Positions 2,710-41,364 are shown, numbered from the stretch's first letter. The stretch is DNA of 64,000 nucleotides from Candidatus Heimdallarchaeum aukensis (GCA_021513695.1 CP084166.1:64001-128000); one strand, 5' to 3'. The notes: generated by a model not told the origin, from the sequence alone. Translations and numbers: made by a program.

Positions 2710-5700
2710 ATGAAAAAAAGTAAAATTAAAGTTATTTCTATTATCGCTATTTTTCTTCTCATCTTGAACGTCTCGACGATATACGTTCAAGGTCAGATGG
2801 TAGGTAATGAAACTAAATTAATGATGACTGGAAATCCTACAGAAGTTTATGAAGATCAGATAGCGATTCTGTATGATCCATTTAATGATATGACAAGAGA
2901 ACTAGCAAATTCGATTTATGAGACTGTTCATATGTTTTATTCTAACGTGAAAATGGTCAAAGTTTTCAATTTAGATTCATTTAACAGAGCTTTTTATGAT
3001 GATGATTGGATTAAAATCTATGTTTTCGACTCTGACTTAAAAGGAATAAAATTTGCTGGTTGGACAATGTCATGGAGAAAACTAACTGGATACTACAATG
3101 TTTTCAAAGATACAAGGCACATTGGAGTTTATGGAAACTCATACAAGATGGGTCCATATCTTAAGACTGAAAACTGTTATATAGAAAATACAGAGATTCT
3201 AGATTATCGTATTGCTTACATTCATGTATTGTGGTCATTATATGATATTTTTACAGAAAAAGAAGATGAAATTCTTCAACAAATAGGAGAAAATTTCAAA
3301 TTAATAGCAATTAAATATTTTGGAGATTCATTTGAAGAAATAATGTCTGCCGAGTTTGATCCACAAGGATTAGGTGTTGTTGACCCAAAAAAGGCAGAAG
3401 AAAGATTACAAGATTCAATGGACCAATATCCAAAGAGATTAAATAAAGTTAATCCATATACGGGTGAGTTAGTTGATCCAACAGCAGAGATTGAAGGATT
3501 TAATCCTGTAATGGATATTAAACCCAAAGCAGCGATAGATGAAGATGACATTGTTTTAGGTGAGTTTCCGTTCTTATCTTCGATTCCTGGAGCTGCAGGT
3601 GACGTTATTAAAATAATTTTAGAGTTTATAGGTGTCGAGATACCAGAAGGTTTATTGACTGTAGGTAAAGAATATGGGGGGCAGATCGTCGCAATAATTA
3701 AAGAGATACCTAAAATTATTGGTTTCTTTAAGGATCCAAGTGCAAGTAGTGCTATTGAACTATTTTTTGATGTAGCAAAAGAAATGTTTCCCAGTATAGA
3801 AGAATATAAGCCCTACTTCGATATAGTAGTGAAAGCCCTATTTTCGATAAAAGATATTGCTTCAGGGGATCTTACTCCTTTAATTGATATATCAATGGAA
3901 CTTCTACGATTTATAATTCCTGATAGTGTAGGAGATTTTGTTGACGATGTTTTTGATGCTTTAAACATATCAAGTGCCCTTTCTGATATTATTAGTGGAG
4001 TTACTAATGTTGGTGATTATCTTAAGAGTTTTCTCAATAGGCAACTAATTACAAATTTAATGAAGAAATTTATTGAACAGACTTTAGATCTAGGGGGAGA
4101 ATCCCAAAAATGGATAGATACCATTTCAGAGATTATTATGATTGCTTATGAAATTGCCAGCACTCGAGATATGGATCACATAATAGCGGATGTCTTTCCA
4201 CGATTAGGAAAATTAGTTTACAAGAACATCTTAGATATGACCTATGATGAAAATGTAGAAAATACCTTCAAAGGAATTGCTGTTGCAATTAAGATGGGTT
4301 TTGGAGCTGCTGGAATCATTGATGTTAATCTTAAGGATTCATTTATGGATTTAATAGGCTTCTTCTTCCCTGACCTCGTTGAGACAGTTAATGATGTTAA
4401 ATTCTTTGTTTCAAGTATTAGGTCTCAAATTGATTCCTTTATGGATCTTGTTAAAGATGTTTCAGAAGGTAAAAATCTAGATGTAAACAACGTTCATGAC
4501 CAAATTATATCTTTAATTACTGAGCTTAGTTCATTATCAGGTCATTCTCTCGATGCAAATAAGATAAATGTACTCTCTCAAGCTGTTTTGATGGCTTTAG
4601 CTCTAATAAATGGTGATTTTGAAGCTTTAAGTGATACTAGCTGCCTAACAAGTCTAGTTGATGGATTTCTAGAACATTTTATTGGACTAGAAGAAGGTCC
4701 TAGAGAAATTGTACAAAAGGCAATAGAAGCTGGAGCAGCTATTTTACCTTTCATTACTGGGAAAAAGAGTTTGAAAAAATATATTATGGGAAGACTTGAA
4801 GATTTTGCTGACAAATTCAAGAATCCTGGAGAAATAATTGAAAAGGTTCTTTATTATTTCCTAAGCAAGTACAACGCAAGTACTCAACTTTACCAACTTA
4901 TTGGAAAAATTGTAGGAATAGTCATTGACATCTTTTCTGGAGGATTTGACTTTTCTGTTCAAAATGTTATTCAGACAATAATCTCAATGGCAGTTGTAGT
5001 TTTGAACATGTTAGATGTCAATATTCCGTTAGAAGCAATGTACAAGAGTTTTCAACTTCTATGGGAAGAGGGGCCAGAATTTTCCAATGTTGTAAAAGTA
5101 GTTCAAGATATTATGGGATTACTTGGAGGAAGCATTGACCCAACAATTAAAACTACTGTAGAAACAGTTCTTACTTTTCTAGGAGGAGCAAAGAATATCT
5201 TCAAAGATGGAATAAAATGGATAATGAACCAACTTGTAGGTTGGGCAGCAGGGCAGATTGCTAATTTATTAAATATGCTTACTGATAAATTAAATGAACT
5301 GTTCCAATCTCTTGGTGATTTGGTAAGTTATGATTCTGAATTCCCAATTGGTTTCGGAAGTTTTACTGCCTTCCAGATGCGAGTATTCTTCTCTTTAAGT
5401 CCTGGATTCGAAATTAACCCTGAACCAATTCAAGAGCTCATTATGAGTATGATTTTTGATGGGTCAAAGGTTTTTGATCTCGATAATATCGGAGAATTGT
5501 TTAAGCTTATCTTAAAATCAATTTCAATTATTCCTATTTTCAAAGCTGGACTTGAAATCAAAGCAGGAACGTCTGGAAAGAACGACTTAATGAAGATGCT
5601 CCTTGATTCTCTTGGTCTGGAACTTTCATTCTCTGGCTCTGCAGGACTAACACTGCAATTAATGAAGATTTCTAATGGTAAAATAAGTACTAGTGATTTC

Positions 5701-8700
5701 TTCAAAGTAATAGAATTCTTCTTTAAATTCCAGATATCAATAGCTAAAACATTCCCATTAGCAGAATTTCTAGGTCCAGGAGGAGCAGTTTTAGCTAAAG
5801 TTGCAGAATTCTTAGGTTTAGGTGGAATTTACCTAAAGATAGAGTTCTTTATAGCAATAGAAATTGTTAAACGATGTGAGACACCTACTCAGAAGGCTGC
5901 AGATATTTTAACAATTGTAATAGGAATAGGTGTTTCTGTAATTATTGATATCGACTTGGTAATTGTTGGAATAAAAATAACTATAGGTTTTGTAGTGACG
6001 CTGACGTTTATCCAGGACTTCTTGGCGGACGCACCGCTGCAAGTGATACTCGAGATAGAGTTCACTGTAGCGGTGAAACTGACGTTCTTGTTCGTCGACT
6101 GGACAGGAACAGCGTCATGGGGTCCAGATCCAATTTATCTGGCAGGAGGACCGGATGATGAAAGCACAAAAGACGAAATGAGCGGCTTGGACGCAGATGG
6201 GGATGGGTTACCTGATTCATATGAGTTAGGAGTTCCAGGAATGAAAGTAGACAGCGATGACAGTGATGGAGACGGTTTATCAGACCAATTCGAAGTGAAA
6301 ACGAGTAAAACAGACCCTATCACTGCAGATTCTGACGATGATGGTCTAGATGATTACATGGAATATGAAGTCTTAAAGACCAATCCTCTACAAGTAGATA
6401 GTGACTATGATGGTTTAACTGACTATGAAGAAGTTGTTATCTATGGAACTGATCCTAATGCACAAGATACAGATGGTGATCAATTAGATGACTATTACGA
6501 AGTAAATACTGCATGGAATATCACTGGAATAACTCCAAGTGTAAGATTTGTTACAATTGGGGGAGTAGAGTATAAAGATCATACTGATCCTCTTAATCCT
6601 GATACTGATGGTGATGGACTTCTAGATGGACAAGAAGGAGAATTTGGGGCTTATTATGGACCAGAATTGTATAACACTTCAGACCCAAGTTGGGATCCCT
6701 ATCCAATATTCTACAATCAAGGATATACTCATCCATTAGATAATGATACCGATGATGATTCTTATAAACAATTAGCAAATGGAACTATAGCTCCAGATCG
6801 TCAGTTCTTAATCTATATGTCTGATAAGGTAGAAATAGATGGACAATGGGTTATTTTCATTGAAGATGATGAATTAATGGGTAGAGTAGTTAGAACTAAC
6901 CCAATTAACCCTGATACTGATGGTGATTCAGCAGTAATGGATAAATCTTGGAGAGGTGATGGGGCTCCTCTTGACTTTTTCCTGAAGTCTGATGGTTACG
7001 AACTCTGGTTAGATCCGCCGACAGACCCGAATGACGCGGATATGGACGATGATGGATTAATTGACGGTTTAGAGGGTTGGGGTAATAAGATCAGTAATCA
7101 TACTGATCCTCGTAATCCTGATACTGATGGTGATGGACTTGGAGACCTGCAAGATATTCTACTCGGTTCGGATCCTTTGAACCCTGATAGTGATATGGAT
7201 GGAATTCTAGATGGTGAGGAGTTCTTCAAGTATGGAACTAACCCCGCTTATGAAGATACAGATCATGATGGGCTTTTGGATGGTGAGGAAGTTTATCTAT
7301 TCCACACAAACCCTCTGGCGGTAGATAGCGATGGAGATGGGATAGATGATGGAATGGAGGTATTAGTTTATGGTTCAGACCCGATGGATGAAGATATGGA
7401 TAACGACGGTCTAACAGACTGGGAAGAGATTTTCTACTACTTTACCAATCCTAGAGATTACGACTCAGATGATGATGGTCTAAGTGATGCTATGGAGGTT
7501 TTAGATGAATATGCTATATACACTGACCCATTGAATTGGGACTCTGATAATGATTCAATCACATATCCTAATGAAAACGGAAATTATACTTTCCCACTTT
7601 CTGATGGAGATGAAGTACTAATTTACGGAACTGACCCATTGACAAGCGATACTGATGGAGATGGATTGCACGATTCGTTTGAACTATATCTTGGTTCAGG
7701 TTTAATTTACAACTTTACTCCTGTACCTTTGGATCCGTTATCTAACGATACTGATGGAGATGGAATATATGATGCAAATGAATACCACATTGCAAATGTC
7801 TCTAACATCATTTATCCTTATGTTAGTTTTATCATCACCCAACCTTACAATACTTCTCCAGTAGATCCAGACTCTGATGATGACGGGATTATCGATGGAG
7901 ACGAAGTCTATGTATATGGAACTATGCCAGATATGAAAGATACAGATGGAGATGGACTAGACGATTGGAGTGAACTTAATATTATGTATACTAACCCTCT
8001 GAGTTCGGATACGGACAATGACTATCTGACAGATTGGGAAGAATGGTATGCGGGTTTTGAACATCCAGGATATCTACTTGATCCTAACGACCCTGATTAT
8101 GATAATGATATGCTGCCAGATGGGCCAGAGTTACTACTTTACGGTTCTAATCCTAATAATGCCTATGAGATTGATCCAAGTTCAGGAAAAGTCGATGGTC
8201 TGTTGATGGATTGGGACCATGATGGTCTAGAAGATGGTTTAGAGTTCTTTGTATACAACACTAGTTATGTAGCAGGAGGAGGAGTCACCCAGCCAGATAG
8301 TGATAGAGATGGTTTGATGGATGGTGCAGAAGTATATGTTCATGGTACAGTCCCCACGAATTGGGATACTGACAATGATACATATAGTGATGGATTAGAA
8401 GTGATGTTAGGACTAGATCCTCTTACATATACAACAGAAGAGGAATTTATAGCAGCTCTATCTGCAAATCAAGATATGCTAGAAGCAGGAGTACTAGTTA
8501 TCTCACCAATAGAAGGTGGAATTTACTCTCCTTCTAACTATACTTTCATCCTCTATAACGTGACAGAACTACTGGGCGTACAATATCAAATGAAGAAGAA
8601 CAAACAAGATTTCGGAGACAACATGAGTATGTACTATGATGATGTTTCAAGGACGTGGATAACTCAAGGAGATTATATTGGACCTGGAGATTATATCGTC

Positions 8701-8913
8701 AGATTTTATGTGACAAAACCTGATGGAAATGTTTCGTTTATAGAACGGACGTTTTATGTCGAAGGAAGTCCAGTTGTCTCTCTACCTTGGGTCTTTGCGG
8801 GAATAGGTGGGGGAGTAGCTATTGGTGTTGCTTCAACTTTGACCGTTTATGCAGGAAGAGCAGGAAAACTGCGATTCTTAAAGAATATCTTTAAAAGAGG
8901 AGGTGCTTCATAA
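2710..8913 (+). CDS. Giant (about 2068 aa) cell-surface protein with three parts. An N-terminal signal/anchor is followed by about 1100 aa of helical region of unknown function. About 25 thrombospondin-type-3-like calcium-binding repeats (DxDxDGxxDxxE) follow, ending in a C-terminal TM helix.
   Basis: The N-terminus MKKSKIKVISIIAIFLLILNVSTIYVQG is hydrophobic. Residues ~1150-1900 contain many repeats such as DADGDGLPDSYE, DSDGDGLSDQFE, DTDGDGLLDGQE, NPDTDGDGLGDLQD, DSDGDGIDDGME, DTDGDGLHDSFE and DTDGDGLDDWSE. The C-terminus VFAGIGGGVAIGVASTLTVYAG is hydrophobic and followed by basic residues. The track start at 2692 is TTG; the ATG at 2710 is more plausible. Confidence 0.8.
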   Translation: MKKSKIKVISIIAIFLLILNVSTIYVQGQMVGNETKLMMTGNPTEVYEDQIAILYDPFNDMTRELANSIYETVHMFYSNVKMVKVFNLDSFNRAFYDDDWIKIYVFDSDLKGIKFAGWTMSWRKLTGYYNVFKDTRHIGVYGNSYKMGPYLKTENCYIENTEILDYRIAYIHVLWSLYDIFTEKEDEILQQIGENFKLIAIKYFGDSFEEIMSAEFDPQGLGVVDPKKAEERLQDSMDQYPKRLNKVNPYTGELVDPTAEIEGFNPVMDIKPKAAIDEDDIVLGEFPFLSSIPGAAGDVIKIILEFIGVEIPEGLLTVGKEYGGQIVAIIKEIPKIIGFFKDPSASSAIELFFDVAKEMFPSIEEYKPYFDIVVKALFSIKDIASGDLTPLIDISMELLRFIIPDSVGDFVDDVFDALNISSALSDIISGVTNVGDYLKSFLNRQLITNLMKKFIEQTLDLGGESQKWIDTISEIIMIAYEIASTRDMDHIIADVFPRLGKLVYKNILDMTYDENVENTFKGIAVAIKMGFGAAGIIDVNLKDSFMDLIGFFFPDLVETVNDVKFFVSSIRSQIDSFMDLVKDVSEGKNLDVNNVHDQIISLITELSSLSGHSLDANKINVLSQAVLMALALINGDFEALSDTSCLTSLVDGFLEHFIGLEEGPREIVQKAIEAGAAILPFITGKKSLKKYIMGRLEDFADKFKNPGEIIEKVLYYFLSKYNASTQLYQLIGKIVGIVIDIFSGGFDFSVQNVIQTIISMAVVVLNMLDVNIPLEAMYKSFQLLWEEGPEFSNVVKVVQDIMGLLGGSIDPTIKTTVETVLTFLGGAKNIFKDGIKWIMNQLVGWAAGQIANLLNMLTDKLNELFQSLGDLVSYDSEFPIGFGSFTAFQMRVFFSLSPGFEINPEPIQELIMSMIFDGSKVFDLDNIGELFKLILKSISIIPIFKAGLEIKAGTSGKNDLMKMLLDSLGLELSFSGSAGLTLQLMKISNGKISTSDFFKVIEFFFKFQISIAKTFPLAEFLGPGGAVLAKVAEFLGLGGIYLKIEFFIAIEIVKRCETPTQKAADILTIVIGIGVSVIIDIDLVIVGIKITIGFVVTLTFIQDFLADAPLQVILEIEFTVAVKLTFLFVDWTGTASWGPDPIYLAGGPDDESTKDEMSGLDADGDGLPDSYELGVPGMKVDSDDSDGDGLSDQFEVKTSKTDPITADSDDDGLDDYMEYEVLKTNPLQVDSDYDGLTDYEEVVIYGTDPNAQDTDGDQLDDYYEVNTAWNITGITPSVRFVTIGGVEYKDHTDPLNPDTDGDGLLDGQEGEFGAYYGPELYNTSDPSWDPYPIFYNQGYTHPLDNDTDDDSYKQLANGTIAPDRQFLIYMSDKVEIDGQWVIFIEDDELMGRVVRTNPINPDTDGDSAVMDKSWRGDGAPLDFFLKSDGYELWLDPPTDPNDADMDDDGLIDGLEGWGNKISNHTDPRNPDTDGDGLGDLQDILLGSDPLNPDSDMDGILDGEEFFKYGTNPAYEDTDHDGLLDGEEVYLFHTNPLAVDSDGDGIDDGMEVLVYGSDPMDEDMDNDGLTDWEEIFYYFTNPRDYDSDDDGLSDAMEVLDEYAIYTDPLNWDSDNDSITYPNENGNYTFPLSDGDEVLIYGTDPLTSDTDGDGLHDSFELYLGSGLIYNFTPVPLDPLSNDTDGDGIYDANEYHIANVSNIIYPYVSFIITQPYNTSPVDPDSDDDGIIDGDEVYVYGTMPDMKDTDGDGLDDWSELNIMYTNPLSSDTDNDYLTDWEEWYAGFEHPGYLLDPNDPDYDNDMLPDGPELLLYGSNPNNAYEIDPSSGKVDGLLMDWDHDGLEDGLEFFVYNTSYVAGGGVTQPDSDRDGLMDGAEVYVHGTVPTNWDTDNDTYSDGLEVMLGLDPLTYTTEEEFIAALSANQDMLEAGVLVISPIEGGIYSPSNYTFILYNVTELLGVQYQMKKNKQDFGDNMSMYYDDVSRTWITQGDYIGPGDYIVRFYVTKPDGNVSFIERTFYVEGSPVVSLPWVFAGIGGGVAIGVASTLTVYAGRAGKLRFLKNIFKRGGAS

Positions 8914-11900
8914 TGCACGTAAAAAATAATTTAATTTGGAAGAAAGTATTAATCCTTTCTTTATTAGCTATAATGATTAGTTCACTAGTAGTAGGAATGC
9001 CCAATGCTCCGTTTGTTAATGCAGAAACTAATTCTGCACAATCTTTGCCTGATACAATAAGTTTAGAGGAAGCTAAACAACTAATGCAACAAATAAATGA
9101 AGGCAATGGTGGGGGCAACTTTGCTTCTGTTGAGCAACAAATCATTGATCCTGATTTAGATTTAAGTAGGTTATTAGCTGATAATCCTAATGAATATCAA
9201 CAAACATATCAACCTTGGAAATCTCAAGCTGCTGTTAGAAGTATAACCATCTCTGATGATTATGAATTTATGGCAGTAGGGGGAGGATATCTCTTTGACA
9301 ACGAAGTACAAGTATATCGATGGAACCCTGATATTAATCAATATGCTAAAGTTTGGGTGAGTGGAGATTCAGTTATTAAAGGCGATGTAATAGATGTCGA
9401 TTTTGGAGATACTGATAATAATGATTTCTTAGAAATTATTGCCACATCTTCTGACGGGTATTTCTACGTCTTTGAACAAGAACATATTTTTGACCCTGTA
9501 ACAAATACAGAAAATAGATTTGATCTTGTTTACACTAGTCCTTATTTAGGTCAAGTGTGGGGTGTAGAAGTTAATGATACAGATTTAGATCATCTAGACG
9601 ATATAATTGTCGTAAGTTGGGATCACAAAGTACATGTTTATGAATATTGGTTACACTCTGGTTATCCATTCAATTCAGAACATTGGATTACATATAGAGA
9701 AAAATGGCAAAGTCATGATACAGGTTATCATTTGTCTTCTTTAGTTGTTGGAGATACAAACTATAATGGTCTTCCAGACTTTGTTGTGGGAACGAGAGAA
9801 GGAGCTATTCTAGTTTTCGAAAATAATGGAACTATTTTAGATATCCAAGGACAACCTTATCCTCTTGCCCAAGATAATAGTTACAAATTAATTTATGCTG
9901 ATAATGAGTCAATTTGGAGACCAATTTACTCTATGGATATAGGTAATCTAGATAACTCTCCAGGAGATGAAGTAGTAATAGCTTCCTTTGCTTTTAATGG
10001 ATACATTCTAAGGTATGATGATTATAAAGGATATTACTTACAGAAGCTGATAAAAGACTTTGAATCTTGGACTTTGAAAGACTTTTATCCTGCAGATCAT
10101 TATGTAGATAATGGAACAGCAGGACAAAATGTATATTTCCAAGATCCAAATTATACAGGAACAACAGTTGAAGAGCCTATTTTGCAAAGTAATCCTGCAT
10201 TTATAAAAGGAAACTATCCCTATAATACTGGAGCTGCGCAAAATAATGATACATGTTATACTCATTTCGAATCTAATAGTACTCATGCTGCATGGGAAGT
10301 ATATGATTTTGGAGCAGATGAAGAGGGAACAGGAAATGGGAATGATGCTGCAGACATATTATTAAAATTCAAAACTTTACTATTTGATTACATATATAGA
10401 GATGATTTTATTATTTCTATCTCTCCAGACTATGAACATTGGGTAACTGTTGATCCTTCTCTTATTAATACATTTAATGTTGCCGCATCAACAAAATATC
10501 TCAGAATTAATGTAGATCCAATTTTAATTGAAAATAAATGGAATTACTTCAGATACATCAATGTAACAGTAATTTCTAATTCTACCAAAGATTATAACTT
10601 GTTATCTATAGAATTGCCTTATGTTTACCAAACTGTTTCAACAGCTTTAAGTGCTGAAGTGGGAACTTTAATGACCAGTACAGATACTAATGAAGAAGTT
10701 ATCCATGCAATTTTAGGAACAGTTGATGGCCGTCTTGTAGCTTTTAAATATGATGCCACTTCAGACTCGTTTGTTTTATCTTGGGATAGCTGGGTAGATG
10801 ATAGATTTACTGTTGGAATAAACATATGGGATATAGAACAAGTTAAGAATCTAGGCTCTATGCCTATGATATACGGAGTTACTGATTTGGAAACAGGTTA
10901 TCAACTTAGGATAAGTCCCTCTCCAGGAAGCCAAATTTCACAAGTGATTTTTGATTATACATTGTTCAATATTGATGGAGATTCTCCAGTTACAGGCGAA
11001 TTTGCAATTGTGGGTGGTAATGGAGATGTGTATTACTTTGATAATGGATTTGATTATGATGCTGCACAAACAACCCAATACTTCTCTTCGATCAACGATT
11101 ATGCAACTTATACAGGAAATATATCAATAGGTGCAGTAGAAATTGATACAGACTATTCCCAAGAAGAATTACTTATCGGTCATTACGATCCAAGTCTTTC
11201 TAATCAATACGATGACTTTGAAGATGATTCTTCAGATGTACTTCCAGCAGATATAAAAATATGGACACAAGTATCTTCAAAATATGAGTTAAATATATCA
11301 CTTTATAGTTTGGAAACAACTGGTCAACTTCGTGAAATATTAAAAAGTGCTCAATCAATTCCTTCAGCAGAAGGAGAGGATATTGATGGGGACGGAGATG
11401 TTGATATTGTTGTTTGTATTGAGAATCTATATCTACTTTGGAACATAGGAACACCAAGTAATCCAGAATTTATTTTGGATTCTGATTACTTTAAAGATAT
11501 AAATGAAGTAAAAGGAAGAAGACAATTCCTACATCCTCAATTTGTGGAATTTGAAATGGATGGAATTTATGATCTATCGATTGGCTACTCAAATAGAGTG
11601 GGAGCAACATATTTTGATAATTATGGAACTGCTCTTGCTCCTAAATGGGAAGAAAGAAAAGAGTTAGTTAACAACTTTGATGAAGAAGCTACAATAAATG
11701 TCTATAACTTTACTAGACCTCTCTGGATAAAATATTCAGAATTTGATGAATATTCTACTTTGTTATTAGAACATAATACAGGAAAGAGCTACTATGACAA
11801 GTACTACATATATACAATGCTAGATGATAGAAATGGTGACATGGTTTACTTCATGATTTCAAATAAAATACAAACTAGCTTCATGGTAGCATCTAATCCT

Positions 11901-14900
11901 ACTGTATCTAGAATCGAAGTTAACACCTTCAAATCTGAAGAATATGGAGGGATCTATAAGTGGAGGAATTTTGGATTTAGGGCAATTATAAGCTGGACGA
12001 CAGCAATAGATCTCTATAATTGGACTTTGACTGTAGATTCTGGAGATTTAGACCAAGATGGGAAAGGAGAAATTATAGTAGGAGACTATGATAGTAATGT
12101 ATACATCTTTGAGCATATGACTAATAATACTTACAAACGTGCATTCAGGTCTCCTGATATGCTCCAGTATGTTCCAACTGATGAAACACCTTATAGTTGG
12201 GACAAATTTGGAGGATATGAAGGAGAGTTTAATCAGACAATTTGGAACCATGTGAGCTATTTGCTTGTGAATGCTGATAGTGATGGAGACGGTTATCTTG
12301 AGTTAGCTGCTCTTGCAGGAACAGTTCTGTATGTATTTGAAGACACGGGAATAGATGATACATACTCATACATGTATAGACTAGATGTTTTAAGGAGTTC
12401 AGCAGGAGAATACTTGAAAGAAAATGGTTTTCTTACACCTTCTGGTTTAACATGGGCTCAAGATTTAGATTTAGATGGTTATGGAGAGTTCATAATAGCC
12501 TTTGAAAAACAAGTATTTGTTTATGAACCTTATTCTGGAACACTCTATGAACTGTTTGGTAATGTTGCATCTGATGACCCTGAAACAGGACACTATAATA
12601 TTTTAGGAAATGCTAGGGTATTTGATAATATTACAATAAATGGAATGTTATGTTCTGACATTAATGAAAATGGAAGAGAAGAACTTTTCATTTATGGTTC
12701 TGTAGATGTTGATCTTCTTGATTATGAAGAAGGATTTATTGTAATGATTGAAAGCATCGATCTAGGCTATAAGATAATCTGGCAAGGACCAACAGAGTTA
12801 GTTAGTAGAAATATTATTACAGACCTTGAAATTGCTGACCAGGACTATGATGGTTTCAAAGAATTGATCATTGGTGGAAGTAAAGGTGTAAGTATTTACG
12901 AATTTGTTGGAGGAACAACTGCTAGCTTTACTCAAGAGGGACTAATTACAGGACACATGAATTATCCCCAAATGGCAGCTCATTCACTATTTGGAAAATA
13001 TAGTTACAATGATGATTATGACTATAGAAAACAGAGGTCTCATGATATAAGACAGATAGTTTACAGTGGAGGTTCAAATAATCATTCATATATTTCTGCT
13101 TTTAGTGAGTATAACGATACAATGGGTGCATATGCTATATATCAAAAAGTAAGTCATGACGGAGTAAATTGGTTATCGAGCAAACTTATAGCTTATTGGT
13201 ATTCTGGTGGTTACATAAGTTTATACTTCCCCTCACTTACACAGACAAGTAATTACTCTCTCTGGTTAGCAGTTACTTGTAAATTTTATAGCGTAGGTTT
13301 AGGTTCCGTATATGGCGTTCTTCTATATCGTTCAGATGATTATGGGGCAAATTGGGTATTCGTAGATGGATTGGCTTCAGAATATATAGAAGAAGGTTCA
13401 ACAAATCCGATATATTCACCCACAATATTCCCAACAGGACCTAATTCAATAGGTTTAGTGTATATTTTCAGACCAAATAACACTTATTCAGAATTATACT
13501 ATGGAGGGTTATTTGATAATGGAACAGTAATACCTCAAACAAAAATCGAGGGTTTTGATGATTTCATGTTCAACGGTGTTGATGTTGATTCAAAACCTGA
13601 TAATAGTGGAGTATATGCTGCTGCTTTTAGTGCTAAAAAGTATATTGAAGAAAAAGATGATTACGATATCTGGTACTGTGAATTTAATTCAACCTATGGA
13701 TTAATACTTGAACCAAGAAGACTATTTACTTCATTCTCTGTTGAGCATACTCCTAGTATTACTTATGTCCACAATGATGCCTATTCTAGACTTCTAACAT
13801 TTGATTCTTCTGGATTACAAAAGGCGATGACTTTATCATATGGAATGGTTTCTGATGATGGAATACATTGGTCTGACCCAGATATACTTGCTGAATATCC
13901 AGAGTATATTATTCCTCCAACTAAGTCAAACCCCTATCCAAAGATATCTGGTTTCTCTAACAGTTGGAGTATATATGATCTAGGTTTCAGAGCTCCAAAA
14001 GTTGCTCCAACCTACGATGGTAAATTCATATTACTTACAAAATTTGATGCAACTATTGTCTACTTCTCATTCCCAATCTTCTATATATATTATTATAATG
14101 ACTACGTAAGCCAAATTTATCCATTGAACTTTACAAGTTTTGTAGGGTTAAACACTGTAACAGATCTTGCTGTTGGAGACTCGGATAGAGATGGTAGAAA
14201 AGAGATAATGATAGCTGATGGATATCGAGCAGAAATGTTTGAGTTACTTAACACAAAAAATAGGAAGCAACTTTATACAAGCAAATGGTATAGTCCTGAG
14301 CATGATAATCCTGTTTCCGATGTAACTATGTTTGACACAAATGGTAACGGTTTTCCTGAACTAATTTACAGCGTTCAAGGCGAAGACATTTATGTATATG
14401 ATGTTGTAAATATTCATTTACCAAAGGCAGATTTACATAAATTACAATCAACTACTTTAGACTTATCTGGTGCTGGAAAGGTTATAACTAGAATTAAATC
14501 AGATCTAAATGATGACGGAATAAATGACATGGTGGTTTATTGCGAAGGAGGAAAAATGTATGGAATCTTAGGTAATAACCTGTCAATTTTATGGACTTTG
14601 GAAGATTCATTAGTTTCTCCAAATTGGTTCCTCGAAGAATCAATTTATCATGGTAATAGTGCTCTAATTTTTGTAAATAGTAATGGAACAACTTTGTGGA
14701 TAGACAAGAAAACAGGACAAGTTATAACCTCTCTTGATTTAGGTGAAGGAAGTTATACCTTAAATCCAATAGCAACAATGCTTAACTATACAAAGGATAA
14801 CACCATGGACATTGCCATTAAAGGTGATGCTCCTGGACATATTTATCTCTTTGACGGGAATAATGGTTCGCTTCTAAAGGATCTCACTTTCGACACTGAA

Positions 14901-16922
14901 AGATATGTGCAAGAAATTGAAGTAGCACATGAGCAAGGAGAGGATTATCTCATAGTTTCTTATTATTGGATAGAATATAAAGACCTAGGTGGCGGTATTA
15001 TTGTATGGATATTCCATGGAAAGATTACTGCTTACAACTTATCTTCGTCCTCACTAGATCAAATATGGGAAGTTAACTCTTACTATGCTGGAGGATTTAG
15101 AGGGGCAAATTTAATAGTAGATGATATTAATGGAGATGGAGATTCAGAAATATATGCATTTGGTGGTGGAATAAAATTACTTGATGCTAATGGTACTGAA
15201 TATTGGCGGGCTTACAACTATTTCTACTCTTATGATGCTGTTATATTTGATATAAATGATGATGGAATTAAAGATATAATTACTTCTTCAGGACAGAATA
15301 GTAAAGTTACAGCTCTTGATGGAAAAGATGGAAATGTTACTTGGAGTAATATACCCACCCAGAATATCTATGACTTAGAGATTAGTGACCCAGAAGGAGA
15401 AGATCCAATCCTTTATCTAGCTAACTCTAGAACAGATTATCAAGGAATAATTTTCTTAAACATTAGGAATGGTGGGTTCTTAGGTTACTATTACGACACA
15501 AGTAGTGATTTTCTAAATGATAACGCATTGGTACCAACCACTGTGGATTCAAAACCTGCAGTCTTAGCAGTTGATTATGACGCAGAGAAAATTTATCAAG
15601 TTCAAATAAATGAAACAGAACAAGTTTATGAGCATGATATTATACCTAAACTCTCCTTTGATCAAATACTTAAAACTGGAAAGAATGTTAACCCCGATAC
15701 TGTTATTTATGACAATCTAAACGACGATGAGTATGTAGAAATTTTCTATATACAAAATGGAAATGAGTCATTCATCTATAATCCAATCAAAGGTGAGTAT
15801 ATTGAAGAATATACTATCCCTACAAATGGGAGTGTTCTTTATGCTTTCAAAGCTAATTTATCTGACACTTCATTCTATGATTCTATTTTTATAATTACCT
15901 CTGAATACAAGGTAGGTGTTTTAGATCTCACTTCAATGAGTTATAAAAAGATATTGGACTTATCAGGTTATGTAGATGAAATTGCTTCATATGCTTACTT
16001 GGATATTACTGAAGATGTATTTATTTTAGGTTTCTTTGACTATACAAAGAAAGCATGGTACGTAGGCGCATGGAATATTAAAGGAGAAGAGGTATTCTCA
16101 CCTATTTACCAAGGTTCTCATAAACCAGATCAAATAAATGCAGGTAAATTACTTGATAAAGCCACGTATGAAGAAGGAGCAGCTTTTGTAATAACAAGCT
16201 TTGGTGCATACATATATGCTTATGATCTTAAGGGAACACAACTAGCTATGATTAAACAAGATGGACCTGCAGGTTTCACAGCTTTAGGAGAACTGAAAAA
16301 AGGATTAGGTTTTGAGTTTGTTTACTATAGGTTTGGAGATAAATTCTACTGTTATAACCTTAATACCATGACTGATGAATGGTCATCTACTTTAAGAAAT
16401 GACAATGAACTATTATCTATTGCTGTAGGATATATTGATAGCTCTACTAATCCTGATTATGCTAAAGTATTTGTTTCGCAGAGCGGTACAGGAATTTATG
16501 CATTTGATGATGTAGATAAAGAGTTATGGTATCACAGACATAATTCTTTTGTTGCTAAATTCCTTCATGTGATCAATGATGAAGCTTTAGGCAAGGTTCT
16601 TCAAGTTACAGATTATCATAGAACATTCTACATCAATGGAACAACTGCTGAAGTTTTATATGCTACAAGTACCTTGATGAAACAAGTTCTTTGGGTAGGA
16701 ACATGGTCTTCTCCAGACTCTGCATATGACTCAATAGCATTCTTTGATGGAAACTCATTCTATAGTCGAGGAATAGATGTTTCTTCTTCAGGAGCTTCAA
16801 CAGTGCAAGATCATATGGAAATCTCTGCAGAAAGGTTAACAAGACTTAGTACTCCAATAATTATAATGATGAGTGTAATGGTAACCATAATCACTCTTGT
16901 CTTCAGAAAAAATAAAAGTTAA
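8913..16922 (+). CDS. Giant (2669 aa) integrin-alpha-like surface protein. It has multiple FG-GAP/VCBS-type beta-propeller blades, BNR/Asp-box motifs, PQQ-like blades and a C-terminal TM anchor.
   Basis: N-terminal signal: LILSLLAIMISSLVVG. Repeated blade motifs at about 60-aa spacing include FGDTDNNDFLEIIA, DTDLDHLDDIIVVS, GDTNYNGLPDFVVGT, DIDGDGDVDIVVC, DLDQDGKGEIIVGDYD, DSDGDGYLELAAL, DLDLDGYGEFIIA, DINENGREELFIYG, DQDYDGFKELIIGG, DSDRDGRKEIMIADG, DTNGNGFPELIYS, DLNDDGINDMVVY, DINGDGDSEIYAFGG and DINDDGIKDIITS. BNR-like motifs are RSDDYGANW and VSDDGIHWSDP. The C-terminus is TPIIIMMSVMVTIITLVFRKNKS. Its start overlaps the upstream stop as TAATG, and it is preceded by a GGAGGTG Shine-Dalgarno-like sequence. 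Confidence 0.8.
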   Translation: MHVKNNLIWKKVLILSLLAIMISSLVVGMPNAPFVNAETNSAQSLPDTISLEEAKQLMQQINEGNGGGNFASVEQQIIDPDLDLSRLLADNPNEYQQTYQPWKSQAAVRSITISDDYEFMAVGGGYLFDNEVQVYRWNPDINQYAKVWVSGDSVIKGDVIDVDFGDTDNNDFLEIIATSSDGYFYVFEQEHIFDPVTNTENRFDLVYTSPYLGQVWGVEVNDTDLDHLDDIIVVSWDHKVHVYEYWLHSGYPFNSEHWITYREKWQSHDTGYHLSSLVVGDTNYNGLPDFVVGTREGAILVFENNGTILDIQGQPYPLAQDNSYKLIYADNESIWRPIYSMDIGNLDNSPGDEVVIASFAFNGYILRYDDYKGYYLQKLIKDFESWTLKDFYPADHYVDNGTAGQNVYFQDPNYTGTTVEEPILQSNPAFIKGNYPYNTGAAQNNDTCYTHFESNSTHAAWEVYDFGADEEGTGNGNDAADILLKFKTLLFDYIYRDDFIISISPDYEHWVTVDPSLINTFNVAASTKYLRINVDPILIENKWNYFRYINVTVISNSTKDYNLLSIELPYVYQTVSTALSAEVGTLMTSTDTNEEVIHAILGTVDGRLVAFKYDATSDSFVLSWDSWVDDRFTVGINIWDIEQVKNLGSMPMIYGVTDLETGYQLRISPSPGSQISQVIFDYTLFNIDGDSPVTGEFAIVGGNGDVYYFDNGFDYDAAQTTQYFSSINDYATYTGNISIGAVEIDTDYSQEELLIGHYDPSLSNQYDDFEDDSSDVLPADIKIWTQVSSKYELNISLYSLETTGQLREILKSAQSIPSAEGEDIDGDGDVDIVVCIENLYLLWNIGTPSNPEFILDSDYFKDINEVKGRRQFLHPQFVEFEMDGIYDLSIGYSNRVGATYFDNYGTALAPKWEERKELVNNFDEEATINVYNFTRPLWIKYSEFDEYSTLLLEHNTGKSYYDKYYIYTMLDDRNGDMVYFMISNKIQTSFMVASNPTVSRIEVNTFKSEEYGGIYKWRNFGFRAIISWTTAIDLYNWTLTVDSGDLDQDGKGEIIVGDYDSNVYIFEHMTNNTYKRAFRSPDMLQYVPTDETPYSWDKFGGYEGEFNQTIWNHVSYLLVNADSDGDGYLELAALAGTVLYVFEDTGIDDTYSYMYRLDVLRSSAGEYLKENGFLTPSGLTWAQDLDLDGYGEFIIAFEKQVFVYEPYSGTLYELFGNVASDDPETGHYNILGNARVFDNITINGMLCSDINENGREELFIYGSVDVDLLDYEEGFIVMIESIDLGYKIIWQGPTELVSRNIITDLEIADQDYDGFKELIIGGSKGVSIYEFVGGTTASFTQEGLITGHMNYPQMAAHSLFGKYSYNDDYDYRKQRSHDIRQIVYSGGSNNHSYISAFSEYNDTMGAYAIYQKVSHDGVNWLSSKLIAYWYSGGYISLYFPSLTQTSNYSLWLAVTCKFYSVGLGSVYGVLLYRSDDYGANWVFVDGLASEYIEEGSTNPIYSPTIFPTGPNSIGLVYIFRPNNTYSELYYGGLFDNGTVIPQTKIEGFDDFMFNGVDVDSKPDNSGVYAAAFSAKKYIEEKDDYDIWYCEFNSTYGLILEPRRLFTSFSVEHTPSITYVHNDAYSRLLTFDSSGLQKAMTLSYGMVSDDGIHWSDPDILAEYPEYIIPPTKSNPYPKISGFSNSWSIYDLGFRAPKVAPTYDGKFILLTKFDATIVYFSFPIFYIYYYNDYVSQIYPLNFTSFVGLNTVTDLAVGDSDRDGRKEIMIADGYRAEMFELLNTKNRKQLYTSKWYSPEHDNPVSDVTMFDTNGNGFPELIYSVQGEDIYVYDVVNIHLPKADLHKLQSTTLDLSGAGKVITRIKSDLNDDGINDMVVYCEGGKMYGILGNNLSILWTLEDSLVSPNWFLEESIYHGNSALIFVNSNGTTLWIDKKTGQVITSLDLGEGSYTLNPIATMLNYTKDNTMDIAIKGDAPGHIYLFDGNNGSLLKDLTFDTERYVQEIEVAHEQGEDYLIVSYYWIEYKDLGGGIIVWIFHGKITAYNLSSSSLDQIWEVNSYYAGGFRGANLIVDDINGDGDSEIYAFGGGIKLLDANGTEYWRAYNYFYSYDAVIFDINDDGIKDIITSSGQNSKVTALDGKDGNVTWSNIPTQNIYDLEISDPEGEDPILYLANSRTDYQGIIFLNIRNGGFLGYYYDTSSDFLNDNALVPTTVDSKPAVLAVDYDAEKIYQVQINETEQVYEHDIIPKLSFDQILKTGKNVNPDTVIYDNLNDDEYVEIFYIQNGNESFIYNPIKGEYIEEYTIPTNGSVLYAFKANLSDTSFYDSIFIITSEYKVGVLDLTSMSYKKILDLSGYVDEIASYAYLDITEDVFILGFFDYTKKAWYVGAWNIKGEEVFSPIYQGSHKPDQINAGKLLDKATYEEGAAFVITSFGAYIYAYDLKGTQLAMIKQDGPAGFTALGELKKGLGFEFVYYRFGDKFYCYNLNTMTDEWSSTLRNDNELLSIAVGYIDSSTNPDYAKVFVSQSGTGIYAFDDVDKELWYHRHNSFVAKFLHVINDEALGKVLQVTDYHRTFYINGTTAEVLYATSTLMKQVLWVGTWSSPDSAYDSIAFFDGNSFYSRGIDVSSSGASTVQDHMEISAERLTRLSTPIIIMMSVMVTIITLVFRKNKS

Positions 16923-16978
16923 ACATTTTTTTCCTTTTTTTATTTTTTAAAATAGTAAATTTAAAATTTTATAAATTC

Positions 16979-17028
16979 AATTTTCTTCATTTTTGTCGGC
17001 TAATTATTCATTTTCTTCATTTTTGCGG
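16979..17028 (+). promoter_or_regulatory. Two copies of the direct repeat ATTTTCTTCATTTTTG(T)CGG, spaced 30 bp apart, upstream of the GTPase gene.
   Basis: 16981-16999 is ttttcttcatttttgtcgg and 17011-17028 is ttttcttcatttttgcgg. A TTATAAAA TATA-like element sits at about 17046-17056. Confidence 0.3.
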
Positions 17029-17113
17029 ATAGAATTACCAATTATCTTATAAAAAGCCATGCGACAGTTAGAATGATAGACCACTAAAAGGTCATAAACT
17101 TGGGGGTTTAAGA

Positions 17114-17791
17114 ATGTTGATGGTACCTACTCAGATGAAAAAAATAACCATACTAGGGACAACTGGTAGTGGAAAGACCACCTTTTTAGAAGCTTTATTT
17201 GGTGATTTTGAAAAAAATGATGTTAAAAGAGATTTGAGTAAAGAAAAAAGTTCAAATTGTGATTTTATTCCTTTGAAAAATAATACATTCAAAGAAAGTA
17301 CAACAACAATAAGTTTGAATGTCATTAATTCATTGCTTTATTTGACTACATTTAATCGATTAGGTTTAGAAAAGTTCGAAAATAGAGACAATATTGACTT
17401 TGAAAATGTTGAAGAGATTTATCAAATAGTTTTCAATGATCCTGCAGGACAAGAAAGATTTGATTTCATGCAAGAGATAGCAGTAAGAGGAGCAAACCTA
17501 GTAATTATAATGGCTGATGGCACAAATATCTCGAGTTTAGAAAAAGTAGTTCATTATATTTCGTTGGTAAAAATTGAAGAAAATCTATCTAAAAAGAAAA
17601 TACCGACTATTATTTTCATCAACAAATCTGATTTAAAGGAAAAGGGTGTTTATTTAGGAAAAAATGTAGCTGAGCAGATTATTTATTCAAGCATTCTTGA
17701 TGAGAAATTACTTATTTATGAAACTTCTAACCTTAAGAGAGAAACATATGATGAACCTTTGAGGATTATTTTTAACTATCTTTCATACTAA
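17114..17791 (+). CDS. Ras-superfamily small GTPase (Rab/Ras-like G motifs) with an unusually long insertion between the P-loop and switch II.
   Basis: G1 is GTTGSGKTT, G3 is DPAGQERF (compare Rab WDTAGQERF) and G4 is NKSD. About 87 residues separate G1 from G3, against about 40 in canonical Ras/Rab. An alternative start at 17135 (MKKITILG) is possible. Confidence 0.75.
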   Translation: MLMVPTQMKKITILGTTGSGKTTFLEALFGDFEKNDVKRDLSKEKSSNCDFIPLKNNTFKESTTTISLNVINSLLYLTTFNRLGLEKFENRDNIDFENVEEIYQIVFNDPAGQERFDFMQEIAVRGANLVIIMADGTNISSLEKVVHYISLVKIEENLSKKKIPTIIFINKSDLKEKGVYLGKNVAEQIIYSSILDEKLLIYETSNLKRETYDEPLRIIFNYLSY

Positions 17792-17843
17792 ATATTTTTT
17801 GTTGATGAAAAAACCTTTTATTTTATAAATCTATTTCTAAGTT

Positions 17844-18818
17844 ATGAGCGTAAAAATAACCTCAGAATATATAGAGCTGCTGAATAAAGCAGTTGCAAGA
17901 GAATTACAAGTTTCTGTTCAATATTTTCTACAACACGCTAAAATTGAAAAAATAATGAGAAAAGTTAAAGCTGAAAATATTTTACTTGATTCCACAACTT
18001 ACGACCAGATAGGTCAGATTTTAAAGAAACTAGCAATAGAAGAAATGAAACATGCAGGATCAATCGTTGAGAGAATTTATTATTTGGGAGGCAAGGCAAC
18101 AACTAAAGCTTTTAAACCTAAAATAGGAGAAAATATGCAAGAATTTATGAAATATGGCTTTGAAGCTGAAGAAGAAGCTTTAGAATTATATCGTGAAATA
18201 ATCCGCGAGGCAGGTAAATTAGGAGATTATGATACTAAAGAACTCTTTAGGAAAATCTATAGAGAGGAAGAAGAACATCTTTATACGTTTCAAGAATATT
18301 TAACAATTAATATTAGTGAACCTGGAGAGACAGCACCAAAGTCCGAATGGAGAAAAGTTTTTGACGACGAATACTTTGCTCTATTAAACAAAGCCTTAGC
18401 TTCAGAACTGTCTGCTATTATTCAGTACATAACCCAACATGAAAAAGCGAGTGCAATCAATCTTAGGAAAAAAGAAACGCCTTTAGAAGTAATTACCAAT
18501 ACAAACAAAGCGCAAGTTATTAGTAACATGTTAAAGAAAATCTTTATGCAAGAAATGGAACATTACGAAAAGATTTCTGAAAGAATATACATGTTGGATG
18601 GAGAATGTACATTGGATCCTGATCCTTTGCCAAAAGTTGGTGAGAGCGTAGAAGATTTCTTGAAACTGGGTCATCAAGCTGAAGATGAAGCTATTGTTCT
18701 TTATCGTAAAATCATAGAAGAAGCTACTAAGAAGGGAGATATAACTACTAAGAAGATGTTTGAAGAAATATTGATGGAAGAAGAAGAACATTACTGGATG
18801 TTTGATGACTACTTGTAA
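17844..18818 (+). CDS. Tandem-duplicated bacterioferritin/ferritin-like diiron protein (two Bfr-like four-helix-bundle halves in one chain).
   Basis: Half 1 reads ELQVSVQYFLQHA...EEMKHAGSIVERIYYLGG. Half 2 reads ELSAIIQYITQHEKA...QEMEHYEKISERIYMLDG. Both match the Bfr motif ExxH ... EMKHAD.LIERIL.LEG. Confidence 0.7.
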   Translation: MSVKITSEYIELLNKAVARELQVSVQYFLQHAKIEKIMRKVKAENILLDSTTYDQIGQILKKLAIEEMKHAGSIVERIYYLGGKATTKAFKPKIGENMQEFMKYGFEAEEEALELYREIIREAGKLGDYDTKELFRKIYREEEEHLYTFQEYLTINISEPGETAPKSEWRKVFDDEYFALLNKALASELSAIIQYITQHEKASAINLRKKETPLEVITNTNKAQVISNMLKKIFMQEMEHYEKISERIYMLDGECTLDPDPLPKVGESVEDFLKLGHQAEDEAIVLYRKIIEEATKKGDITTKKMFEEILMEEEEHYWMFDDYL

Positions 18819-18888
18819 TCTAAAACTAAAATATTTTTTCTCTTTTTTGGAAAAGGATTATAAGCTGTAAGGTTGAAGTAATTTAAGA

Positions 18889-19254
18889 ATGAGTAATATA
18901 AAGAAACTCACTTTTTCTGTAAATCAAAGTAGAAGAGTGATTCGTGCAGCAGAAAACAAGAAAATTGAACCTAAAGAATTGCTTAAAGGTTATGAGCTTA
19001 TGGTAAATACCCTCTTTAAGCATTGGAAAGAAGAATATGCTGAAACTATGGAAATTGACTTTCAAACATTTTTTTATGAAATAATGAAATATGCTGAAGT
19101 TAAATATAGATTAGAAAAGACCAAGTCTGATCTAAAAAAAATAAAAGAAATGTCAGAGTTGTTAAACGAAGCCATTGAAGAATATAAAGAAGATTATACA
19201 ATTTTGAAGGCTATAGAAGATAGTTTGAGAAATATGGGTGTTGAGTGGGTTTAA
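18889..19254 (+). CDS. Hypothetical small, charged, helical protein (121 aa).
   Basis: The ORF contains no recognisable motifs. It directly abuts the next ORF (TAAATG) upstream of the serine recombinase. Confidence 0.45.
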   Translation: MSNIKKLTFSVNQSRRVIRAAENKKIEPKELLKGYELMVNTLFKHWKEEYAETMEIDFQTFFYEIMKYAEVKYRLEKTKSDLKKIKEMSELLNEAIEEYKEDYTILKAIEDSLRNMGVEWV

Positions 19255-19704
19255 ATGAAATTGAATATTACCCAATTTAAGATTAAATTCAAGGATAAAA
19301 TAGAAATTGAAAATGAAGAGAAATTTGCAGATAATATAATCTATTATTATCCGTTTTTTCAATCTTTAGATAAAAATGAGTTAGAGAAGTCTCTTCAATC
19401 AATAAGAGAAGAAAAAAAAGTCTTGGAGAAAAAATTCAAAAAAATAAAAGAAGAGTTCTCAGATATACTGGGAGAGATAGCAAAAATACGTTTCACAGCT
19501 AATGAATTATATAATCAAAATAGGGTTATAGCTCTGACTACAGGGTTATTAAGACATAAGCTGATAGATTTACATAATAATAATGTTGAACTTCCTTTTG
19601 ATTATGAGGAAACACTTAAGTTTGTAGAACATTTTATTTATAGATATTTAACTAAAAAAGAAGATAAAAGACTTGTTGCCCAGCTACCTTTTAAAGAGAT
19701 TTGA
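19255..19704 (+). CDS. Hypothetical coiled-coil protein (149 aa).
   Basis: The ORF has a K/E-rich predicted coiled-coil segment (EKSLQSIREEKKVLEKKFKKIKEEF). It forms an operon-like unit with the 18889 ORF and the recombinase. Confidence 0.45.
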   Translation: MKLNITQFKIKFKDKIEIENEEKFADNIIYYYPFFQSLDKNELEKSLQSIREEKKVLEKKFKKIKEEFSDILGEIAKIRFTANELYNQNRVIALTTGLLRHKLIDLHNNNVELPFDYEETLKFVEHFIYRYLTKKEDKRLVAQLPFKEI

Positions 19705-19745
19705 GAAAATTCACACTTTTTCTATTTGGAATAGTAATACTAAGT

Positions 19746-19753
19746 TTTATATT
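19746..19753 (+). promoter_or_regulatory. Candidate TATA box (TTTATATT) for the serine recombinase gene.
   Basis: It lies about 31-38 nt upstream of the ATG at 19784. Confidence 0.3.
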
Positions 19754-19783
19754 AAAAATAGAGAACCTTATTGCAAGGTCAAA

Positions 19784-26769: not shown

Positions 26770-26770
26770 T

Positions 26771-41340: not shown

Positions 41341-41364
41341 GATAAGAAAAGCAAAAACCATTAA
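40468..41364 (+). pseudogene. Duplication-generated truncated ABC ATPase copy. It contains NBD1 only and gains a chimeric 7-aa tail after the junction.
   Basis: The first 291 codons are identical to the 44278 ATPase. After the junction at 41341 the frame reads DKKSKNH and stops. Confidence 0.5.

Follow-up and report, generated by a model that had tools for sequence, protein, structure and literature searches.

The stretch analysed here is a 64,000-nucleotide (nt) segment of the Candidatus Heimdallarchaeum aukensis genome (GCA_021513695.1 CP084166.1:64001-128000; hereafter the window, with positions counted from its first letter). It contains two adjacent giant genes, here called P1 and P2, followed by a gene for a Ras-superfamily small GTPase. 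An earlier note, made from the sequence alone, had taken the three together as a candidate calcium-dependent surface adhesion or sensing complex, possibly with a GTPase output. The Asgard-like host suggested there is borne out, as the GTPase matches a protein of Candidatus Heimdallarchaeum aukensis with 100% identity. P1 (2710..8913, plus strand) was called as an open reading frame (ORF) of 2067 amino acids (aa) from the ATG at 2710, with an in-frame TTG at 2692 as an alternative start, and P2 (8913..16922, plus strand) as an ORF of 2669 aa. The translational coupling proposed for the two genes at 8913 agrees with what is read at their junction (8897..8915, plus strand), which consists of a TAATG stop/start overlap at 8911-8915 and a Shine-Dalgarno-like GGAGGTG at 8897-8904, placed 9 nt upstream. 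Oligo-T tracts (16923..16948, plus strand) lie directly 3' of the P2 stop; as archaea usually terminate transcription at runs of T, these tracts likely mark where the P1-P2 transcript ends. A scan of 16500-17900 for bacterial promoters and terminators, which is uninformative for an archaeon, detected no hairpin terminator of the bacterial type. The GTPase gene (17114..17791, plus strand; 225 aa) begins 191 bp past the P2 stop, in line with the ~190 bp given earlier.

P1 is laid out as a signal peptide, a head of ~1100 aa, a ~750-aa array of TSP3_bac repeats, an Ig-like domain, a transmembrane (TM) anchor and a short basic tail. Hydropathy analysis identifies two hydrophobic segments, at aa 8-26 and aa 2022-2040. 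The second corresponds to the C-terminal TM anchor (8773..8847, plus strand), beyond which a basic tail remains, ~20-27 aa long according to the end assigned to the TM segment; no known docking motif was found in this tail. P1 contains 21 N-glycosylation sequons. The repeat array (6190..8409, plus strand; aa 1161-1900) was delineated by motif counts and by Pfam PF18884 (TSP3_bac). It had been described as about 25 tandem DxDxDGxxDxxE repeats, and we count 21 matches to a motif of this type and 27 separate DxDxD sites (31 overlapping matches). Many repeats are exactly 23 aa apart, with conserved non-repeat inserts between them. TSP3_bac matches the whole of P1 with an E-value of 3.4e-23 and the repeat segment alone, in nine stretches, with 5e-25; the scores of 81.6-87.4 bits lie above the gathering cutoff of 25, placing the repeats in this family. 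The earlier assignment to a TSP3 or OmpA-TSP3 kind thus holds for the bacterial TSP3 repeat and fails for the eukaryotic TSP_3 in profile searches. The repeats of the two giants are of the bacterial TSP3 and FG-GAP kinds, rather than the dockerin or beta-roll kinds that had been named as counting against the proposal. Within the family, no part of P1 is better conserved than the array (47-66% identity), which holds a fixed number of 15-22 repeats, whereas typical adhesins have expandable stalks.

The head had been taken for one helical domain, a description that fits only its middle part. An AlphaFold2 (AF2) model of the head, built from 24 sequences (mean predicted local distance difference test score, pLDDT, 73.9), shows three regions. 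An alpha/beta domain with a three-layer flavodoxin-like fold (2857..3429, plus strand; aa 50-240) is followed by a helical repeat region (3667..5313, plus strand; aa 320-868; from AF2 secondary structure, pLDDT ~75-89) and by a long-stranded beta domain (5323..6144, plus strand; aa 872-1145) with ~10 amphipathic strands in a barrel-like model. The modelled strands of this beta domain would be 7-19 residues long, nine of them 11-19. Identification of the alpha/beta domain as a VWA or integrin beta-I domain was considered and rejected, given its flavodoxin-like fold, the lack of a VWA match and the lack of a metal ion-dependent adhesion site (MIDAS) motif; aa 50-240 contain no conserved Cys either. 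No sequence relative of the head (aa 1-1150) was found in Pfam, NCBIfam or the PDB. A sequence profile of the head searched against the PDB gave only compositional matches, to designed helical bundles, and a Foldseek search of the PDB gave no match below an E-value of 1e-3. An exhaustive search of 1.84 billion proteins returned 84 representatives of head relatives. Those with names are all annotated as "hypothetical protein" and come from Hod, Thor or Heimdall metagenome-assembled genomes (MAGs), so that, among named relatives, the ~1100-aa head appears to be Asgard-specific.

P2 consists of tandem FG-GAP-type beta-propellers, an inserted beta-sandwich region, one BNR-like region and PQQ-like C-terminal propellers. 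It matches FG-GAP_3 (2.3e-16) and FG-GAP (24 bits against a cutoff of 22.1) and contains 12 calcium-loop motifs of the form D-x-[DN]-x-[DN]-G-x-x-[DE]. The model of aa 80-1229 (pLDDT 83) is composed of all-beta tandem propellers with an inserted beta region. The FG-GAP propellers reported earlier are therefore retained; the accompanying VCBS assignment is not, since no VCBS profile match to the P2 of the window was obtained, and the BNR blades are marginal, with one canonical SxDxGxxW and a Pfam BNR_6 E-value of 0.04. By hydropathy, P2 has an N-terminal hydrophobic signal and a C-terminal TM segment, so that both giants end in TM anchors, as had been proposed. The P2 anchor (16836..16901, plus strand) is followed by a 6-aa tail, FRKNKS; the family consensus C-terminus is KRK. 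The number of N-glycosylation sequons in P2 is 36.

The P2 family comprises 83 full-length relatives of about 2,600-3,300 aa, colinear over their first ~1,900 residues. Their source names include Heimdall, Hod, Kari, Loki, Thor and Hermod, and NEF87_004126 of Ca. Lokiarchaeum ossiferum is among them; the P2 of the window is 88% identical to that of Ca. H. endolithica. The most conserved part (9363..10262, plus strand; aa 151-450) is the membrane-distal first propeller, with the signature YEYxNHSGYPF..EHWITY; shortly before this part, at aa ~100-109 (nt ~9210-9240), comes a second signature, EPWKSKAAVH. Across 25 homologues, the mean identity is 46-61% at aa 151-450 versus 19-27% in the membrane-proximal third. 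The aspartates of several FG-GAP calcium loops are invariant in 26-40 homologues. The best Foldseek matches of the P2 model are the generic multi-propeller proteins SF3B130, DDB1 and Elp2; the matches to SF3B130 and DDB1 were rejected as homologues because they reflect only a generic multi-propeller likeness.

To explore the genomic context of the pair, P2 loci were gathered by a pattern-based scan with one genome per species, and the ORFs called in them were searched with the window proteins. This yielded 72 P2 loci, labelled Heimdall, Hod, Kari, Loki/Prometh, Thor, Hermod and Njord, and 3 further loci labelled Nitrososphaerota/Bathyarchaeota. Enough upstream DNA was available at 52 of the 72. 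A P1 homologue (2,025-2,300 aa) abuts P2 in 44 of these 52 informative loci, with a gap of -8 to +20 nt, and P1 and P2 form a single ORF in another 6. The genes are thus adjacent or fused, and constitute a conserved pair, in 50/52; the other two loci are different or truncated. Several of the 20 loci short of upstream DNA still show a P1 C-terminus at the contig edge. Synteny of P1 and P2 in related genomes, which the earlier note had proposed as a check, is thereby established, and the conservation of the pair is far wider than that first reading supposed. No other gene family is conserved around P1-P2 among the fetched loci. A wider conserved gene cluster around the pair was considered and rejected, as the neighbours are only subgroup-specific.

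The fused ORFs (4,300-4,900 aa; L031, L037, L050, L056, L063 and L067) occur mostly in Thorarchaeota-labelled MAGs. P1 aa 47-2025 and P2 aa 10-1999 are both covered by the alignments of two metagenomic fusion proteins, P0134 (4355 aa) and P0135 (4348 aa). The fusions keep the P1 TM segment, a charged loop of 45-70 aa and the P2 signal anchor, an arrangement that would place both ectodomains outside. Those from Thor and Prometh have a TM segment, a K/S/E-rich cytoplasmic loop of 60-70 aa and a second TM segment, and the junction sequences are of at least two different kinds. Signal-peptidase cleavage at the retained P2 signal anchor could separate the two products. A subfamily with a longer P2 (~3,150 aa; Hod/Heimdall/Prometh labels) is found at 12 loci (L036, L042, L058-L060, L064, L071-L075 and L080), in most of which a third gene of ~941 aa lies on the same strand 3' of P2 (9 were scored downstream of the pair). 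A second P2-like gene is located downstream in L047, L059 and L071.

As far as named relatives show, P1-P2 appears to be an ancient gene pair restricted to Asgard archaea. Adjacency that outlives all other neighbours, together with repeated fusion, is a classical signature of subunits that are made and used together. The notion that the two giant genes form a functional unit is supported by an adjacency with stop/start overlap that is kept across lineages, and by the fusions.

The GTPase is a member of the Ras superfamily. It matches Pfam Ras (3.8e-11; 43.3 bits against a cutoff of 21.6) and TIGR00231 small_GTP (47.9 bits against 42.5), and contains the motifs G1 (GTTGSGKT), G3 (DPAGQ) and G4 (NKSD). 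Like other Asgard Ras-superfamily GTPases, it matches Pfam Ras, Roc and Arf, and its nearest solved structures are Ypt7, Arl8 and Ran; it differs from them in an insertion of ~40 aa between G1 and G3 and in having no C-terminal lipidation motif. More than 136 relatives are spread across the Heimdall, Kari and Odin lineages. GTPases with 61-66% identity are encoded on four contigs from three other Heimdallarchaeaceae assemblies, all without the giant genes at this position. The four contigs share one gene order: nadA, nadC, NAD kinase, GTPase, a 121/122-aa protein, a 149-aa protein, a resolvase-domain protein, IF-2B, a hydrolase, NIPA and an amidohydrolase. The window keeps the same order, but with P1-P2 (14.2 kb) between NAD kinase and the GTPase. 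A double ferritin-like protein of 324 aa is encoded at 17844-18818, between the GTPase and the 121-aa gene; this gene is found there only in the window (with L001/L002) and in Ca. H. endolithica (L013). With both the double-ferritin gene and P1-P2 in it, the stretch from NAD kinase to the resolvase-domain gene looks like a gene-insertion hotspot.

The order P1-P2-GTPase is confined to the Heimdallarchaeum clade (the window, L003/L004, L013, L014 and L017), so that the three-gene arrangement, unlike that of the two giants, is not generally conserved in related genomes. The GTPase is present at only 3/72 P2 loci, one of them split: at L014 18038-18746 the orthologue is divided into two ORFs of 75 and 96 aa, either a pseudogene or an assembly error. 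Locus L016 has NAD kinase, P1, P2 and the 121-aa and 149-aa genes and has lost the GTPase. At the other P2 loci, no small GTPases occur apart from two that are unrelated, encoded on the opposite strand at a distance of 5-9 kb.

Signals between P2 and the GTPase would also separate the two genes. A promoter-like element (17028..17056, plus strand), consisting of GATAGAATTACCA followed by a TATA-like CTTATAAAAAG at 17046-17056, lies ~60 nt upstream of the GTPase ATG. Within the ~100 bp 5' of the GTPase, a block GATAGnACTAyCA followed by CTTATAAA can be aligned whether or not the genome has P1-P2. Two features that the earlier note had already mentioned as arguing for independent regulation, the oligo-T tract after 16922 and the repeat near 16979-17028, are both present. 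The repeat is an exact 16-nt direct repeat of ATTTTCTTCATTTTTG at 16980-16995 and 17010-17025, with 30-nt spacing, just 5' of the promoter-like element. Both copies of ATTTTCTTCATTTTTG are kept with changes in H. endolithica and are not clearly found in more distant relatives; they may be a regulator binding site.

Downstream, the GTPase is followed by 121/122-aa and 149-aa helical proteins whose genes overlap by stop and start (window 17114-20506; also L005, L006, L007, L009, L013 and L014). A ~240-aa protein with a serine-recombinase "Resolvase" N-terminal domain then follows, in Heimdallarchaeaceae with or without P1-P2; a resolvase-domain gene in a fixed housekeeping synteny is unusual. 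The possibility that the small neighbours are Roadblock/MglB-like GTPase partners was rejected, the 121-aa and 149-aa proteins being helical or coiled-coil and without a Pfam match. The GTPase is probably a separate transcription unit, and the conserved cluster it belongs to is another one, made up of the GTPase, 121-aa, 149-aa and resolvase-domain genes. Its position next to P2 would be a clade-specific accident of gene order. It is not regarded as part of the module because there is no synteny outside the Heimdallarchaeum clade, an oligo-T tract follows P2 and the promoter-like element is conserved.

Several other features of the window were noted. The G+C content is 0.37-0.40 at 6001-10000, compared with ~0.30 elsewhere in the window; this rise probably reflects composition and not foreign origin, because it coincides with the Asp/Gly-rich TSP3 array. 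Another coupled pair of surface-protein genes is located at 24913-29494, where the gene for a 618-aa protein without a family match ends 1 nt before that for a 907-aa protein with an archaeal type IV pilin N-terminal domain and CarboxypepD_reg and Big_1 Ig-like domains. The region 36164-46065 encodes two very large MacB-like permeases (1432 and 1006 aa; the MacB_PCD match is sub-threshold), interleaved with ABC ATPase genes (298 and 595 aa).

The reading of P1-P2 that we favour, and consider reasonably probable, is that of an Asgard-restricted pair forming a 1:1 calcium-stabilised, membrane-anchored surface complex, a candidate for the "complex surface proteins" of Lokiarchaeum. Translation of P1 and P2 would be coupled on a single mRNA; the proteins would use the Sec pathway for export, be anchored at their C-termini and be N-glycosylated (21 + 36 sequons). 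On the outer face of the single membrane they would assemble 1:1 into a calcium-stabilised heterocomplex. The membrane-proximal TSP3 array of P1 may act as a rigid calcium-loaded stalk of fixed length, bearing the distal head with its alpha/beta domain, helical repeat and barrel-like amphipathic beta domain. The propeller chain of P2, with its strictly conserved calcium loops, would end in the highly conserved distal propeller, which probably contacts P1 or a shared conserved ligand. The conservation pattern points to a housekeeping envelope, contact or adhesion structure and not to a fast-evolving adhesin, since conservation peaks in the distal parts, the number of repeats is fixed and most lineages retain the pair. 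In line with such a candidate, L. ossiferum was seen to have no S-layer and to carry unidentified "complex surface proteins" (PMC9834061), and no S-layer protein was detected in the P. syntrophicum proteome (PMC11284389).

Several points weigh against this reading. The interaction of P1 with P2, their expression, their surface location and calcium binding are all inferred from sequence, and what adjacency and fusion prove is that the two are produced together, not that they form a complex. Only 24 sequences underlie the AF2 model of the P1 head, in which the beta domain has a pLDDT of 50-80. No Odin, Baldr, Wukong or Sif loci came from the locus search, which is pattern-based and cannot show presence in every Asgard class. 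Such proteins are also not mentioned in the main text of the P. syntrophicum proteome paper (PMC11284389).

How much of the locus belongs to one system, and what the pair does, can be read in other ways. If P1, P2 and the GTPase formed a single integrin/thrombospondin-like adhesion or sensing module signalling to a Ras-like GTPase, the common strand, the 191-bp distance and the recurrence of the order in the Heimdallarchaeum clade would be accounted for. In Myxococcus, the TSP3-repeat protein CglD and the adhesin CglB act under the Ras-like MglA, and NCBIfam CglD matches the P1 repeats (1.2e-45), which makes for a loose analogy. However, the CglD score of 155.8 is far below the cutoff of 400 and concerns the repeats only, and the tails of P2 (6 aa) and P1 (~20-27 aa) carry no known docking motif. 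In other Heimdallarchaeaceae, orthologous GTPases come directly after NAD kinase with P1-P2 absent, and the 121-aa, 149-aa and resolvase-domain genes always come next; the scarcity of the GTPase at P2 loci, its loss from L016 with P1-P2 and the 121-aa and 149-aa genes kept, the oligo-T tract and the conserved promoter-like element all speak against such a module. The role of the GTPase as the output of the complex is therefore abandoned; the three-gene module is largely refuted by synteny, and we consider it very improbable. Equally remote is the reading of P1 and P2 as polymorphic-toxin or contact-dependent delivery proteins, as a generic arCOG annotation suggests. The only literature trace of such proteins is one supplementary table row, for an orthogroup that may contain the P1/P2 orthologues. 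Instead of a toxin domain, a TM anchor and a short basic tail close each of the two proteins, and throughout the family the C-terminus is kept as a KRK-type anchor. Neither a variable C-terminal cassette nor a small immunity-like gene is conserved downstream in the fetched loci; the proteins are fixed in length and in number of repeats, with conservation strongest in the distal N-terminal parts.

P1 and P2 might instead be co-expressed and independent, for example two coat proteins that replace an S-layer without forming a specific heterocomplex. Co-transcription alone would explain their adjacency, and, like many archaeal envelope proteins, both combine a large glycoprotein-like ectodomain with a C-terminal anchor. 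Yet the stop/start-overlap adjacency survived across several Asgard classes while all other neighbours changed, and the repeated independent fusions enforce 1:1 production, a pattern typical of physically interacting subunits; we regard independence as unlikely. We would give a similarly low weight to a membrane-contact or exchange device, in which the amphipathic beta domain of P1 inserts into another membrane (e.g. that of a syntrophic partner) or encloses lipids or hydrophobic ligands, with P2 providing adhesion. The boldest extension of the 1:1 surface complex is only slightly less doubtful: P1-P2 would be the ancestral major Asgard surface complex, the identity of the "complex surface proteins" seen by cryo-tomography and a calcium-dependent two-subunit contact machine, whose head engages partner cells or membranes through its barrel-like hydrophobic domain. 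If true, the lineage from which eukaryotes arose would possess a prokaryotic counterpart, built independently, of heterodimeric adhesion receptors. The pair, with ~4,700 residues annotated only as "hypothetical", offers a concrete and testable candidate for Asgard surface structures, and its presence in the cultured Lokiarchaeum ossiferum (NEF87_004126 and its upstream neighbour) makes it directly addressable. The tempting story of "integrin-Ras signalling" is set aside, as the GTPase lies in a different conserved cluster.

In the literature searched, no paper links Asgard archaea to FG-GAP, VCBS or thrombospondin-type proteins or discusses the P1-P2 pair. The closest known counterparts of the P1 array are bacterial TSP3 proteins (CglD, MtsD, OmpA-family TSP3 and 7c7r), which carry the same 22-23-aa DxDxDGxxDxxE repeat as P1 aa 1161-1900 and share with P1 a presumed extracellular location. 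Apart from CglD, the P1 repeats match NCBIfam MtsD (3.3e-13) and the biofilm-associated surface protein of PDB 7c7r (E-value 2.2e-7). The CglD and MtsD matches are confined to the repeats, and P1 scores far below the equivalog cutoffs of both CglD (NF033765, 155.8 vs 400 bits) and MtsD (NF047639, 48.7 vs 800). P1 differs from the bacterial proteins in lacking a VWA domain, in its 1100-aa head, which is confined to Asgard archaea, in its TM anchor at the C-terminus and in having a propeller gene as obligate partner.

With thrombospondin and COMP, P1 would share calcium-binding type-3-like aspartate repeats, fixed in number and folded as a "wire". Profile matches to COMP (3fby, E-value 0.0064) and thrombospondin-2 (E-value 0.28) are weak, and P1 has no match to Pfam TSP_3 (PF02412) or TSP_C even at E-values up to 1. 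It differs further in lacking EGF repeats and a coiled coil, and in having bacterial-type repeats and an Ig-like C-terminus followed by a TM anchor. The resemblance to integrins lies in the general layout, and does not amount to membership. As in integrin alpha/beta, there are two type-I proteins with large ectodomains and short tails, the P1:P2 pairing is probably 1:1, like that of the integrin heterodimer, and the FG-GAP blades of P2 carry the D-x-D-x-D-G calcium loops of integrin alpha. In contrast to integrin alpha, P2 has no match to the Pfam thigh/calf domains (Integrin_alpha2), contains several tandem propellers instead of a single seven-bladed one and has a tail, FRKNKS, without the GFFKR motif; the best Foldseek matches of its model are not integrins. 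P1 lacks the VWA/beta-I domain, MIDAS motif and EGF repeats of integrin beta. The thrombospondin/integrin/Ras analogy of the earlier note is therefore reduced to the repeat types, and by these profile and motif comparisons P1 is not a thrombospondin, nor is P2 an integrin.

P2 is built from the same repeat families as the prokaryotic FG-GAP/VCBS/PQQ multi-propeller secreted proteins (arCOG07561 and arCOG10338), and source annotations call its relatives "VCBS repeat-containing" or "PQQ-like beta-propeller repeat protein". It is distinguished from the secreted proteins as one orthologous family of fixed length, about 2,600-3,200 aa, with a TM anchor in place of a toxin domain and with a fixed partner gene.

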